DNA from: an uncultured Planctomycetales bacterium
GTDB taxonomy: Bacteria > Omnitrophota > Gorgyraeia > Gygaellales > JAHJCI01
Length of the DNA: 61,555 bases
Direction: 5' to 3'
NCBI GenBank assembly: GCA_964592485.1
Contig: CAZQEY010000006.1
Coordinates: 1 to 61,555 of the forward strand
Shown: in pieces, positions 7,080 through 49,195 of the stretch
How the letters are laid out: each line of letters starts with the position of its first letter
Position numbering within the stretch: position 1 is the stretch's first letter
Notes under the pieces: generated by a model
Told to the model about the DNA's origin: nothing
Seen by the model: the letters and a program-made list of their open reading frames with translations, nothing else
Databases searched by the model: none
Position numbers and translations under genes: made by a program

Positions 7080-9494
7080 TTACTGAAAAATCAATTCTTC
7101 CTTCTTACGGCCTACCTTAAGTATTTTTTTATCTTTCAGCCGACCGGAGATAATCTCGGAAGATAATGGGTCTTCCAAGTATCTCTGAATTGTTCTCTTT
7201 AATGGCCGAGCACCAAAAATGGGGTCAAAACCCTTCTCAATCAAAAGTTGTTTTGCTTCCTCGCTCACCTGAAGAGTAATATTCTGTTCTTTTAGTCTCT
7301 CATTAACATAACTAATCTCTAAATCAACAATTGCATTTAAATTCTCTTTTACTAAAGACCGGAATACAATGATATCATCAATGCGATTCAGGAATTCGGG
7401 CTTAAATGTGCGCTTGACCTCCTCTAACAGTTTCTCCTTCATCTCTTCATAAGAGACCCCTTCCTTCTGGCTTTTAAAACCCAAGGAACCGCTTTTGCGA
7501 ATAAGCTCTGCACCCACATTAGAGGTCATAATAACTGCGGTATTGCGGAAATCAACCTTGCGGCCAAAGCTATCAGTAAGTCGGCCATCTTCAAAAACCT
7601 GCAAGAGCAAATTAAACACATCCGGGTGCGCCTTTTCAATCTCATCTAAAAGGATTACTGCATAAGGCCGATGCCTGACCTTTTCAGTAAGTTGGCCACC
7701 TTCCTCATAACCGACATATCCAGGTGGTGCTCCAATAAGGCGAGAGACGTTGAATTTTTCCATATACTCAGACATATCATATTGAAGAAGAGCATCCTCA
7801 TCGCCAAACATAAACTCAGCAAGAGCCCTGGCAAGCAGAGTCTTACCCACCCCGGTTGGACCTAAGAAGATAAATGAACCGATTGGCCGCTTGGGGTCTT
7901 TTATTCCTGCGCGTGAGCGCCGAATAGCATGAGCAATTGCAGAAATTGGCTCCTCCTGACCAATCACCCGTCGATGTAATTCCTCCTCAATCTTTAATAA
8001 CTTCTCGGTTTCTTTTTCCTCCAATCTGAACAGCGGGATTCCCGTCCATTGGGAAACAATCTTGGCAATATCTTCGGCAGTAACCTTCGGTCGCATCCTA
8101 TCCTTGGTTTTTGTCCATTCGCGGTTTAGCTCCTCTAATTTTTCTCGTGCCTGCCTTTCCTCATCACGCAAAGCTGCTGCCTTTTCAAAATTCTGGGATT
8201 TAATATAAGTTTCCTTTTCCTTTTTTGAAGCCTCAATCTTATCCTCTAATTCCTTAATTTCAGGCGGAACAACCAAAACATTCAGCCGCGCGCGCGCTCC
8301 AGTCTCATCAATTAAATCAATTGCCTTATCCGGTAAGTATCTGCCGCTAATATATCTGTCTGATAACTTTGCTGCTGCCTCAAGAGCGGAATCCTCAAAG
8401 GCAACCCGATGGTGCGCCTCGTATTTATCGCGTAAGCCCTTTAAGATTTCAATGGTTAAATCAACGCTGGGCGGCTCAACCATAATTGTCTGGAATCTCC
8501 TCTCTAAGGCAGCGTCCTTCTCAATGTGTTTGCGATATTCGTCCAGCGTGGTTGCGCCAATGCATTGAATCTCTCCCCTGGAAAGGGCTGGCTTTAAGAT
8601 GTTCGAGGCATCAATGGCTCCCTCTGCTGCTCCCGCCCCAACCAGAGTATGCAACTCATCAATTAATATGATTATATCCTGGGAGCGTTTAATCTCCTCC
8701 ATCACTGCCTTGATTCTCTCTTCAAATTGGCCGCGGTATTTGGTTCCGGCAATCATCAAAGCCAAATCCAAAACAATGATGCGCTTATTCTTTAAAATCT
8801 CTGGTACATTACCGGCAATTATTGCCTGTGCAAGGCCTTCAACAATAGCGGTTTTGCCCACGCCTGCCTCGCCCAAGAGAACAGGATTGTTTTTGGTGCG
8901 TCGGCTTAATATCTGAATCACCCTTTCTATTTCGTTGCGACGGTCGATTACCGGGTCAAGTTTTGACTCTCGGGCTAAATGGGTTAAATCACGACCAAAG
9001 GCATCCAGGGCAGGGGTTTTTGTCTTGACCTTTTGCGTTTGTCCATAACCAGGAGTGGCTGAGCCTAAAAAATGCATTACCTGATTACGCACCATATCTA
9101 AATCCAGTCCCAGATTCATCAAGACCTGGCTGGCCACACCCTCTCCCTCGCGAATCAAACCTAGAAGTATATGCTCGGTACCGATATAATTATGCCCCAA
9201 TGAACGTGCCTCTTCTGCCGACAGCTCCAAAACTTTCTTGGCCCGCGGAGTAAAGGGGATATCTCCCAAAATCTGAGTTGTTGGACCAGGCTGCACCAGT
9301 TTCTCCACCTCAAGGCGAATCGTCTCCAAAGACATACCCATATTCTGCAGGACCGCTGCTGCCACCCCCTCCCCCTCGCGAATTAAACCTAGGAGTATAT
9401 GCTCGGTACCGATATAATCGTGATTAAATCGCCTTGCCTCCTCTTTGGCTAAAATGATTATCTTTCTTGCTCGTTCAGTAAACCGATTAAACAT
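7080..9494 (-). CDS. clpC: ATP-dependent Clp protease ATPase ClpC
   Basis: Two Clp-N repeats, two AAA+ modules ([16 protein letters not shown]), UVR coil; RBS GAGGAGG. Confidence 0.96.
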
Positions 9495-37113: not shown

Positions 37114-37443
37114 TCCCCCGTAGCTCAGTCGGTAGAGCAGATGGCTGTCAATTCGCCAAAGGCGAATTGACCCCGAGCATCACCCTAAAAAAGTTAAGAT
37201 GCGAGGGGTTAATCATGGCAGCTTTCCCGAGAAATCGGGATTGAAAAAGCGGGCTAATTCAGGAGAGCCCTAAAAGTAAGGGTAATCCTGAGCTAAATCT
37301 TCGCTAAAGGCGGAGTAAATGTGCAGAGACTATATACCCGCTATCCAAACGTAAAAACGAGGATAAAGATATAGTCCAAGTCCGAAAGTAATTTCGGGTT
37401 ACTTGTAACCATCGTGTCCGAGGTTCGAGTCCTCGCGGGGGAG
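37114..37443 (+). tRNA. tRNA-Asn(GUU), intron-containing: exon 1 37114-37148, exon 2 37406-37443
   Basis: Joined exons give a 73-nt cloverleaf: acceptor TCCCCCG/CGGGGGA, discriminator G, D arm GCTC/GAGC, anticodon arm GATGG-CT GTT AA-CCATC, T arm CGAGG-TTCGAGT-CCTCG; CCA not encoded. Confidence 0.92.
37149..37405 (+). ncRNA. Group I self-splicing intron, 257 nt, no ORF, resembling bacterial tRNA (IC3-like) introns
   Basis: 5' exon ends in U and intron ends in G; P3 GCGGG/CCCGC, P4 TTCAGG/CCTGAG, P5 GCCCT/AGGGT, P7 GCAGAGACTA...AAGATATAGTCC, P8 TATCC/GGATA, P9 CCGAAA/TTTCGG; IGS GCAGCT at 37218-37223. Confidence 0.9.
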
Positions 37444-37450
37444 TTAATTT

Positions 37451-47090: not shown

Positions 47091-47327
47091 TTATATGCCT
47101 AAGGCCTTACTTATGGCTTCTTTGTCAAAACCAGTAATAATCTGGCTATCAACTTCCAGAACCGGAACCCCCATCTGTCCAGATTTGCGTATCATCTCCT
47201 GAGCTGCCTGTTGATTAGAGGAAACATCAATATCTTCGAAATCTATATTGTTTTCCTTTAGAAACTGCTTCGCGCCCCTGCAGTAAGGACAAGTGGGTGT
47301 GCTATATACTTTTACCTTCCTGGCCAT
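47091..47327 (-). CDS. Glutaredoxin/NrdH-like redoxin
   Basis: CPYC, GQMGVPV, GFD. Confidence 0.9.
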   Translation of the reverse strand: MARKVKVYSTPTCPYCRGAKQFLKENNIDFEDIDVSSNQQAAQEMIRKSGQMGVPVLEVDSQIITGFDKEAISKALGI

Positions 47328-47339
47328 ATTTTACCCCCT

Positions 47340-47423
47340 CAATTTTACCCGCCGCAAGGCAAGGCAAGGCGGGAAAATTGATACCGAGCGGCTTTAGTCA
47401 ACACCGAAGCTGCGAGGGATATT
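47340..47423 (+). repeat. Bipartite REP-like element (CAATT-hairpin-AATTG plus GA-mismatch hairpin)
   Basis: Same scaffold as 37149-37213 and 48542-48612. Confidence 0.75.
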
Positions 47424-47898
47424 ATAAACTCTTCTTTAAATCAGTTAATTTTCTTAGGTGGTCTTGCTCTTGAGTAATCAACTCATTAATGACTTTATGG
47501 TCATATTCCGGAGCAACCTTCTTCATGCCCTCATAAAAAACTATTGAATCCTCCTCAGACTTTATGCCCATATCAATCGCTTGATTATCGCTGGTAACCT
47601 TCTTGGCTAACTCATTACCCTTGTCTTTTTGGGTGAATACGTTCCCACTGGCTAAGGCATTCATATAGGCGAAATACTCACCCGGATACGACTCTGGCGG
47701 TTCGTATTTGCTTACCGAATCCAGAATCTTCTGAAAAACAACTATATGTTTTTCCTCTTCGCCTGCCAGATATTTAAATATCTCCTTTGCCTTTTGATTT
47801 TTAGATTTCCCGGCAATTGCATTATAGAAATCTCTGCCGTTTTTCTCTATCTGGATTCCTATTTCCACTATCTCACTGCCTGCAAATATATTCCCCAT
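47422..47898 (-). CDS. Ferritin-like/rubrerythrin-family diiron protein (MGNIF start preferred over the ORF track 47949)
   Basis: EKNG..FY, EEEKH, EEDSIVFY, EQDH; RBS GAGGAGG. Confidence 0.85.
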   Translation of the reverse strand: MGNIFAGSEIVEIGIQIEKNGRDFYNAIAGKSKNQKAKEIFKYLAGEEEKHIVVFQKILDSVSKYEPPESYPGEYFAYMNALASGNVFTQKDKGNELAKKVTSDNQAIDMGIKSEEDSIVFYEGMKKVAPEYDHKVINELITQEQDHLRKLTDLKKSL

Positions 47899-47904
47899 AT
47901 GCCT

Positions 47905-48090
47905 CCTCCTCAAATGAGCAGATAACTTATGGAGCACGAAGTGCGACATAAGTTATAGGCCAAAGGCCGTCTGCGAATTTGACCCCTCACTCAGCTCTCT
48001 ATAATAATAAGCTGAAGGCTGAGTGAGGGGTAAGTTCGGACAAATGACTTATGTCGCTTTCCAAGCTCCATAAGTCATGTCCTCACTTAC
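47905..48090. repeat. Modular intergenic scaffold, copy A
   Basis: Three blocks (20 bp and 33 bp identical, 64 bp similar) shared with 50736-50954. Confidence 0.85.
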
Positions 48091-48530
48091 AAATCCACTT
48101 CCTTAATCCAAGAACCGTGCAAATTGCAATGCTCTATTACCGTAAGTTTGCCACTTTGAGCCTTCATATGAAGTGCAGCTGCCGGATTTAGTTTATCAGG
48201 AGTCAATTGTACCCTTGATATAAACTGATTATCTATATAAAAGTCGATACTCATAATATAGTGCTCCGGCAACATAGGATGCTGTATTTGGCCCATCTTC
48301 ACGTGCACATCCTGACAGCCCTCAGGTATCAGGCCGCATTTTTTTACCACAGTAATAACCGGTACGTGCTTTTTCTCTAACTCACTTGGATTATTCACGT
48401 CCTTTGGAGTTTTTATAGCGTCCTGCTTTTCCTCGAATGATGTCTTTGAAGCCCCACAAACAGGACATTTATCCGGGGCGCTGCCGTCTATGGATATAAA
48501 CCCACATACCTTACAAACAAATCCTTTCAT
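48087..48530 (-). CDS. Rubredoxin-like domain fused to superoxide reductase (desulfoferrodoxin) domain
   Basis: CKVCG...CPVCG; EKKHVP, HPM.PEHYI, HCNLHG. Confidence 0.88.
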   Translation of the reverse strand: MKGFVCKVCGFISIDGSAPDKCPVCGASKTSFEEKQDAIKTPKDVNNPSELEKKHVPVITVVKKCGLIPEGCQDVHVKMGQIQHPMLPEHYIMSIDFYIDNQFISRVQLTPDKLNPAAALHMKAQSGKLTVIEHCNLHGSWIKEVDL

Positions 48531-48541
48531 AATCCGTCTCC

Positions 48542-48612
48542 CAATTATCCTGCCGCAGGTAGGATAATTGATCCCGAGTGACCATAGTTAACCACCGGTC
48601 ACGAGGGACCAA
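48542..48612 (+). repeat. Bipartite REP-like element overlapping the flavodoxin stop
   Basis: CAATTATCC...GGATAATTG-ATCCCGAGTGACC...GGTCACGAGGGA. Confidence 0.75.
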
Positions 48613-49195
48613 CTACTTTACCCGCCAACGGCGGGGTAACAATTCTTTCTCCTAACTCAAATGCCTTTTTTAAAATATCCGGATGTTTTAGAATTTTCCC
48701 TTTTTCATCAACACCCGAACAAAATAGTTCTTCCTGATAGACTGCATTAATGGTGGCAAATAGATTTTTAACAATTGATTTTGCATTATCAAAAAAATCT
48801 TTTCTGTCCGATGCCTCTACGGAAATAAAAGCACCTTTGCACTTTCTCTTAAATATATCTTTTTTCAATATATATTTTGCCCTCCAAGCACACTGGAACC
48901 GGTCTATCATCATCTTGGTCTGGGCACTCAGAGAGCCAAAGAATATTGGAGAGGCCAGGATTATTGCATCCGCCTCATCAATCTTTTTATAAAGGGGCTG
49001 CATATCATCCTCTACTATACAGGTGCCGTCATCCCTTATTTTTTCACATTCCTGACAGGGAGAAAACTTAAGAGTATTTAAAATAATCTTTTCTGTCTTA
49101 GCGCCTTTAGTTTTAGCCCCCTCTAGAACTTTATCAAGCAGGATATCCGTATTGCCGCCTATCCTGGGACTGCCATTTATTCCTAATACATTCAT
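48599..49195 (-). CDS. Flavodoxin/NADPH-dependent FMN reductase family
   Basis: GSPRIGGNT, PCQECEKI...C...DDM, ASPIFFG. Confidence 0.88.
   Translation of the reverse strand: MNVLGINGSPRIGGNTDILLDKVLEGAKTKGAKTEKIILNTLKFSPCQECEKIRDDGTCIVEDDMQPLYKKIDEADAIILASPIFFGSLSAQTKMMIDRFQCAWRAKYILKKDIFKRKCKGAFISVEASDRKDFFDNAKSIVKNLFATINAVYQEELFCSGVDEKGKILKHPDILKKAFELGERIVTPPLAGKVVGPS

Follow-up and report, generated by a model that had tools for sequence, protein, structure and literature searches.

The P1 loop of a tRNA-Asn group I intron probably houses a copy of a dispersed Omnitrophota hairpin repeat

Nesting of one selfish element inside another is rare and has precedents. REP/REPIN systems are characterized by RAYT transposases and by palindromes with a GTAG-type head. 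Ssn nucleases are single-domain GIY-YIG proteins of ~80–95 aa whose genes are flanked by dispersed NTS/SRM hairpin repeats (Chenal et al., 2025; PMC11893778). The closest published precedent for the present locus comes from Candidatus Thiomargarita nelsonii, whose "MITEtron" consists of a hairpin repeat of MITE type lodged in the P9 region of a group I intron in dsrA (Flood et al., 2016; PMC4853749). The ends of the MITEtron repeat are inverted and it carries direct repeats of TATAG; the authors liken it to Correia elements (PMC4853749). IStrons are described as a group I intron combined with an IS element and a transposase gene that move as one unit (Tourasse et al., 2014; PMC4227781). In the tRNA-Leu(UAA) group I intron of Nostoc, the P6b stem-loop is composed of repeat motifs of Class I and Class II (PMC4476775).

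The locus analyzed here lies in a window (the whole stretch of DNA under study) of 61,555 nt from an Omnitrophota bacterium, whose assembly comprises 1.70 Mb and is 92% complete. A tRNA-Asn gene is split by a group I intron, and the loop of the P1 substrate helix of this intron (L1) is filled by a module of two hairpins, hp1 and hp2, that belongs to a chromosomal family dispersed in the same genome. The three-level nesting put forward in the original prediction, with a repeat housed by a ribozyme that itself interrupts a tRNA gene, is borne out by the family covariance model R1, by the Rfam model RF00028 and by the exon junction. The L1 occupant is probably a non-coding member of a modular hairpin-repeat family found across Omnitrophota, and this copy would be an old or recurrent tenant rather than a fresh local insertion. 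As with the MITEtron, a bacterial group I intron carries a peripheral non-coding hairpin repeat that is widespread in the same genome and has no transposase inside. Whereas the host of the MITEtron is a protein gene, the host here is a tRNA anticodon loop and the site is L1; the module also differs in its two hairpins, its tandem-GA clamp, the lack of clear terminal inverted repeats or target-site duplications, and its link to GIY-YIG genes. IStrons (PMC4227781) similarly nest a group I ribozyme with a DNA-level mobile element, but the module nested here is non-coding and no transposase is present. The Nostoc intron (PMC4476775) is likewise a bacterial tRNA group I intron with a conserved core and a strain-variable peripheral repeat stem-loop; P6b, however, consists of short repeat motifs, not of a discrete two-hairpin element, and is not L1. 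The tRNA-Asn intron host, the L1 site, and the element type with its GIY-YIG link are new relative to these precedents. A search of open-access papers and preprints found no publications on bacterial tRNA-Asn group I introns or on Omnitrophota group I introns.

The tRNA-Asn(GUU) gene is interrupted between positions 35 and 36 by an intron of 257 nt on the plus strand. RF00028 matches the intron over the full model length (93.1 bits, with a gathering threshold of 50; E 1.2e-22) and is the only Rfam family matched in the window; by this match, the conserved P3–P9 catalytic core is complete. The junction GGCTGT/TAACCA was set from the intronless tRNA-Asn genes of two relatives, G007 and G019, which gives the following features.

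37114–37148, plus strand: tRNA-Asn 5′ exon, positions 1–35, ending in GGCUGU, as aligned with intronless G007 and G019
37149–37405, plus strand: group I intron, last base G37405, from RF00028 and the exon junction
37406–37446, plus strand: tRNA-Asn 3′ exon, from U36 to the discriminator G, with CCA not encoded

The flanks form the acceptor stem TCCCCCG/CGGGGGA with discriminator G and the anticodon stem-loop GAUGG-CUGU/.../UAA-CCAUC. The joined exons match the G007 and G019 genes base for base, and the exons are contiguous and intronless in four relatives (G007, G019, G027, G029). A second tRNA-Asn gene was not found in the 1.70 Mb assembly (92% complete), and splicing of the intron is therefore presumably required. 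The 257-nt intron contains no ORF, and hence no transposase ORF. ARAGORN with default settings calls no tRNA in the window and so misses the gene at 37114–37446; with introns allowed, it calls a tRNA-Tyr(GTA) with a misplaced intron, a call that is overruled by the intronless homologues. Automatic annotation of Omnitrophota genomes will thus tend to lack tRNA-Asn, and annotators should be warned that the gene may be missed or miscalled as tRNA-Tyr by this program. Among sequencing runs, the locus is found only in a metagenome that is the probable source sample; a single RNA run contains a short conserved part, from a relative.

L1, from the splice site to the guide sequence, is 69 nt long. The letters of the element and its occupancy of 65 of these 69 nt are as originally described when checked in the sequence. 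The helix and its loop are composed of the following parts.

37143–37150, plus strand: P1 5′ strand, GGCUGU/CA, with the U37148·G37218 wobble at the splice site; pair probabilities 0.76–1.0 in the ensemble of 37139–37245
37149–37169, plus strand: hp1, CAATTCGCC AAA GGCGAATTG, a GC-rich hairpin with an A/T base, from sequence and fold
37170–37209, plus strand: hp2, ACCCCGAG-CATC-16 nt loop-GATG-CGAGGGGT, with a CGAG/CGAG tandem G·A clamp; the R1 match spans 37164–37213
37210–37217, plus strand: L1 tail, TAATCATG, whose final UG pairs with intron C+1 A+2 in the predicted fold
37216–37223, plus strand: P1 3′ strand, UGGCAGCU, including the internal guide sequence GCAGC at 37218–37222
37226–37239, plus strand: P2 hairpin, CCCGA GAAA UCGGG, from the Rfam match and the fold

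The guide sequence GCAGC is kept in all 84 parsed homologues, and the U37148·G37218 wobble at the 5′ splice site has a pair probability of 0.997. In the predicted fold, P1 is extended into the intron by pairs of C+1 and A+2 with U37216 and G37217, and tails of 6–10 nt, mostly ending in TG or AG, are also found in other module-bearing L1 loops. Because C+1 and A+2 pair in P1, and because nine of 15 short, module-free loops in homologous introns begin with CAAT or CAAA, the 5′ edge of the element is ambiguous by 2–4 nt; the letters of hp1 do begin at 37149, but an element start at exactly the first intron base is too precise a reading. A clear target-site duplication is not seen around the L1 module, only CAAT...TAAT. 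The CAA[A/T] at the start of L1 and a [T/C]AA[A/T] in the tail agree in six of nine introns when compared by eye, which is not convincing. CGAG opposite CGAG is a classic context for stable tandem sheared G·A pairs in both RNA and DNA, and such pairs would account for the invariance of the clamp.

The predicted minimum-energy fold contains P1 together with hp1 and hp2 (z = -5.5), and P1 is thus predicted to form despite the L1 module. At the RNA level, hp1 and hp2 would branch off the extended P1 as a three-way junction that leaves the U·G pair and the guide sequence intact; since the hairpins are removed with the intron, the mature tRNA-Asn would be unchanged. The extended hairpin GTCAATTCGCC/GGCGAATTGAC over exon bases G34–U35 does exist in the sequence. 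The proposal that it competes with P1 holds only in part: it is disfavored at equilibrium, where the P1 pairs have probabilities of 0.98–1.0 and the exon-spanning pairs of at most 0.001, and forcing the competing hairpin GUCAAUUCGCC/GGCGAAUUGAC costs +5.8 kcal/mol. It becomes the most favorable structure only when the transcript ends ahead of the guide sequence. As modeled, the competing hairpin would occur as a co-transcriptional intermediate only, and a kinetic effect on splicing is possible.

The two intergenic elements with which the intron module had been compared share its bipartite scaffold, CAATT-stem-AATTG-A-NNCCGAG-stem/loop-CGAGGG, as predicted.

47340–47423, plus strand: intergenic hp1+hp2 copy, R1 43.3 bits, antisense to the flanking minus-strand genes
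48542–48612, plus strand: intergenic hp1+hp2 copy, R1 47.8 bits, abutting the Shine-Dalgarno-like GGAGA and the ATG of a small minus-strand ORF

The small ORF beside the latter copy has a rubredoxin-like Cys motif, as judged from its translation. A genome-wide scan indicates that hp2 is the conserved unit of the family, consisting of TCCCGAG, a covarying stem of 4–5 bp, a loop of ~15 nt, and CGAGGGA; its usual length is 38 nt. The covariance model R1 was trained on 22 other genomic hp2 copies with the intron copy left out. At E≤0.01 it recovers 37 copies from the 1.70 Mb assembly, all of them intergenic. With 38.2 bits (E 7.8e-8), the intron copy ranks 25th among the 37 and falls within the range of the training copies (37.4–55.4). 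Covariation in the inner stem is strong: 41 cells are changed on both sides, compared with 13.7 in shuffles, none of 500 shuffles is as high, and the signal collapses when the partner column is slid. The score of the held-out copy and this covariation indicate that the likeness of the scaffolds is real and not due to chance, so that the intron module is a member of the family. Its CCGAG...CGAGG span is 35 nt, compared with 33–36 nt typical of copies in this genome. Family copies agree only in the clamp and the structure, with a mean column identity of 58%. Rfam at E≤1 over 47300–48650 yields no family for the module; weak matches on both strands at 47968–48042 (mir-4433, antizyme frameshift element) are considered spurious. 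This palindromic stretch between the two intergenic copies may be a hairpin element of a different type.

The copies are dispersed over the genome in several arrangements. A GC hairpin on an A/T base lies directly upstream of hp2 in about 20 of the 37 copies, other copies occur as inverted doublets or arrays (C1 161226–161320; C32 2955–3173), and several are located directly after tRNA genes. The array at C32:2955–3173 consists of five hp2 copies of alternating orientation at a spacing of 42 nt, which fill one intergenic region; copies of the same orientation are 84 nt apart, and the layout is REPIN/BIME-like. Single copies show an 18:6 bias toward the strand antisense to neighboring genes, which cannot separate an effect of replication from one of transcription because GC skew in this genome locally follows the orientation of the genes. 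The copy in the intron belongs to the antisense majority, as tRNA-Asn is opposite to its own neighbors. The hp1 end of many copies abuts a CTCC or CTCCTC run (window 48519–48541; C14:11129, C5:4846, C28:8717, C4:60154); read on the other strand, this run serves the next gene as its Shine-Dalgarno sequence, so that the element often lies in antisense just ahead of a ribosome-binding site. The interior of the intron hp2 has no close match elsewhere in the genome, and neither a donor copy nor a recent insertion is therefore demonstrable; the interiors in the family are too divergent for dating. The family is also too divergent for BLAST: a search with the L1 of relative G008 in five genomes returned only the self match. 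A relaxed regular expression for the clamp produced mostly noise and was dropped. At 9145–9406 on the minus strand, two near-identical CCGAGCATATAC...CGAGG stretches, 228 nt apart, match a loose regular expression; they have no R1 match and resemble part of a repeated coding segment more than members of the family.

The family extends beyond this genome. With R1 it is present in 16 of 40 relatives, at 1–16 copies each, and five additional Omnitrophota genomes contain the clamp TCCCGAG..CGAGGGA in 39, 11, 4, 2, and 2 copies, compared with 0–1 for the reversed control. In the orthologous tRNA-Arg/tRNA-Lys spacer, which measures 72 nt with hp1+hp2 here and 9 nt in G004 and G001, two genomes from the same bacterial family, the module has been gained or lost at the DNA level. 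No publications on GIY-YIG hairpin repeats in Omnitrophota were found among open-access papers and preprints; the hairpin-repeat family is widespread in Omnitrophota and apparently unpublished.

The genome encodes five GIY-YIG ORFs of 79–91 aa in which PF01541 is the sole GIY-YIG domain; four of the five weakly match the related T5orf172 model, and NCBIfam gives sub-threshold GIY-YIG matches only. Three of these five ORFs have an R1 copy within 100 nt, where the chance for a given 500-nt interval is ~1%, and most genomic copies have no ORF nearby. The linkage is most complete at C7:12806–13330 (L093), where a unit of ~400 bp after tRNA-Arg contains hp1+hp2, a 91-aa GIY-YIG ORF located 14 nt downstream in sense orientation, and two inverted hp2 copies. 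This unit ends with an 18-nt duplicate of the tRNA-Arg 3′ end (caactcctgccaggcgca), and partial tRNA duplications also flank the GIY-YIG ORFs at C1:23432–24149 (tRNA-Pro) and C24:1–580 (tRNA-Glu). The GIY-YIG/hairpin elements thus seem to target tRNA genes.

As a description, the term "REP-like" is apt: in common with REP, BIME, and REPIN elements, the copies are short intergenic imperfect palindromes that occur singly, as inverted doublets, and in arrays, with an orientation bias. In the stricter sense the term does not apply. A six-frame search of the 92%-complete assembly for a RAYT (Y1 HUH transposase, PF01797) gave no match, whereas control genomes were positive; a GTAG-type palindrome head is absent, the conserved letters being TCCCGAG...CGAGGGA; the family is tied to the genes for 79–91 aa GIY-YIG proteins; and, unlike in REP, BIME, and REPIN elements, conservation is limited to the clamp while the interiors covary freely. 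As in Ssn systems, single-domain GIY-YIG genes of ~80–95 aa are flanked by repeat copies, on both sides in the case of C7, and hp1, with its A/T base and CCGCC-type stem, resembles the dRS3/NTS ATTCCCGC...GCGGGAAT of the Ssn system. In contrast to that system, there are ~37 copies instead of hundreds, and the conserved part is the CCGAG/CGAGG clamp of the second hairpin. The SRM pattern HGTCWYN(0-2)YYVSBRHN(0-5)WNVSBRGN(0-2)RNCYNB has one site genome-wide, compared with 1–9 in shuffled sequence, and none within 60 nt of family copies. The family is accordingly filed as one that may work like Ssn/SRM, and not as a member. By analogy, mobilization may proceed via recognition of a single-stranded DNA hairpin by a GIY-YIG protein.

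The intron itself belongs to a lineage that is common in the phylum: the tRNA-Asn intron was found in at least 22 of 40 relatives, with homologues in at least 80 Omnitrophota genomes. A census of the L1 state over 74 distinct homologous introns distinguishes the following classes.

Short loop of 7–10 nt: 15 of 74 introns, nine beginning with CAAT or CAAA
HNH endonuclease ORF of 309–384 nt (109–123 aa): 21 of 74 introns, PHROG 2255, E 1e-27 to 1e-29
ORF-less remnant: 11 of 74 introns, with the leader hairpin and the last ORF codons kept
hp1+hp2 module: 20 of 74 introns
Mixed or unclassed: 7 of 74 introns, five with a GCGAG-type first hairpin and a clamp-type second hairpin

The strong match of the HNH ORF is to PHROGs; with Pfam, one of three proteins gives a match, at E 0.003 and below the cut-off. 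L1 is a tolerant site that changes quickly. Its states are scattered on the intron-core tree (38 changes, compared with a shuffled mean of 42.8), the module needs at least 10 changes even when only well-supported branches are considered, and short L1 loops of 7–10 nt are also found in members of the well-supported clade to which this intron belongs. In genus g24, the module, a 21-nt loop, and an ORF are found on nearly identical cores, and the whole of L1 is replaced rather than interrupted. The intron L047, one of the 20 module bearers and from a distant core clade in another genome, has a 21-nt hp1 identical to that of this intron and a much longer hp2. No local repeat is identical to this hp1, which suggests that it was inherited or exchanged among introns. 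The long hp1 in the L1 of G009 recurs at five other sites in G009 and at 10 sites in the present genome, one of them directly upstream of a GIY-YIG gene, and the long hp2 of G009 is found in introns only. On such sequence matches, L1 modules are drawn from genomic pools. The intron of G008 (L008; C63:1–508) is 431 nt long. Its P8 loop contains another clamp hairpin between 8-nt direct repeats (GTTCAGTT), and the P5/P6 region has an additional insertion.

The likeness of the intron module to the elements at 47340–47423 and 48542–48612 could in principle be a coincidence among GC-rich hairpins, and a search for the 13-mer AATTGANNCCGAG with one mismatch would permit this, with three sites in the window against 1.3 expected and 12 of 100 shuffles reaching three. 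This search alone is insignificant and the covariance model was therefore used instead; the E value obtained with the intron copy left out of training, together with the agreement in length, clamp, hairpin order, and connector, refutes coincidence and makes it vanishingly improbable. A more substantial alternative, unlikely on present evidence, is that the hairpins are a native extension of P1, a three-way junction under RNA selection that might aid the folding or docking of P1 or protect the excised intron, and that the genomic likeness reflects a shared stable motif or copies derived from the intron. The junction letters (CAA[A/T]..., ATTTG-A[C/T][C/T]CCGAG, CGAGG[G/A][G/A]T, and the tail) recur in 20 of 74 L1 loops, hp1 is identical in L047, ORF-type L1 loops also open with a GA-clamped hairpin (GCGAG-stem-CGAGC), and P1 with both hairpins is the minimum-energy fold, all of which such an extension would account for. 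In addition, homologous introns with the same L1 in genomes free of the family would speak against the module being an insertion, and G008 comes close to this case: in its 76%-complete assembly the L1 scaffold is present, and its only two R1 copies are both inside the intron. A native extension is difficult to reconcile, however, with the 15 introns in which L1 is merely 7–10 nt long, some of them in the clade of this intron, with the scatter of states on the core tree, with 36 further copies outside any intron that are mostly antisense to their neighbors, with the lack of the module at orthologous non-intron sites in relatives, and with hairpin interiors that are unconserved between introns. 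G020 in particular has 10 genomic copies and a 7-nt L1 (CAAUAGG), and the state of L1 is only loosely linked to the presence of genomic copies. As its scaffold is common to 20 homologous loops, the module is not an insertion private to this genome.

The module might alternatively be the leftover of a homing-endonuclease cassette that kept its GA-clamped leader hairpin and lost its ORF. A GA-clamped hairpin precedes the HNH ORF in 21 of 74 introns, 11 more keep the hairpin and the last codons, and at C7 hp1+hp2 stands 14 nt upstream of a GIY-YIG ORF in sense orientation. Against this, L1 here lacks the ORF remnants of true derivatives (...AAAAATGCTCAAAGC) and has the tail TAATCATG instead, hp1+hp2 differs from the GCGAG-type leader in its first bases and its layout, and most genomic copies are without a nearby ORF; this origin is very unlikely. 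It is also conceivable, although quite unlikely, that the GA-clamped double hairpin is a recognition structure of GIY-YIG nucleases and that L1 is a shared landing pad on which two unrelated selfish systems, HNH homing-endonuclease genes and GIY-YIG-linked hairpin modules, displace one another by cassette exchange; intron homing that carries the module between genomes would then explain the identical hp1 in distant intron lineages. In a stronger variant, the module would be co-opted to tune co-transcriptional P1 formation and so the supply of tRNA-Asn.

In the reading that we favor, a resident copy of the dispersed repeat, the unit is a variable GC hairpin (hp1) followed by an hp2 clamped by CCGAG...CGAGG, and at the DNA level the family acts as a dispersed gain-and-loss element tied to tiny single-domain GIY-YIG genes. 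L1 would be a permissive loop on which selfish DNA can land, and may be one of the few sites in an essential gene where a hairpin element or a homing-endonuclease ORF can sit harmlessly. The L1 cassette would often be swapped, probably by re-insertion or by recombination in the conserved flanks formed by the exon and P2, and frequent swapping within the intron lineage is what makes the copy an old or recurrent tenant. We infer that the module is neutral for splicing and that L1 cassettes are exchanged. The family would thereby reach the sole tRNA-Asn gene found in the assembly, with the ribozyme as a safe harbor. The homologous introns provide a natural series for the tolerance of a group I substrate-helix loop, in which the same core carries a 7-nt loop, a two-hairpin repeat, or an endonuclease gene of 340 nt. 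Moreover, hp1+hp2 and the 79–91 aa GIY-YIG proteins are defined substrates and candidate enzymes for studying Ssn-like single-stranded DNA nuclease recognition of other hairpin types.

In introns of the HNH class (L007, L011, L022, and L084 among the examples), the 3′ end of the ORF reads through the guide sequence GCAGC into P2, so that the substrate-binding strand of the ribozyme is also coding sequence.
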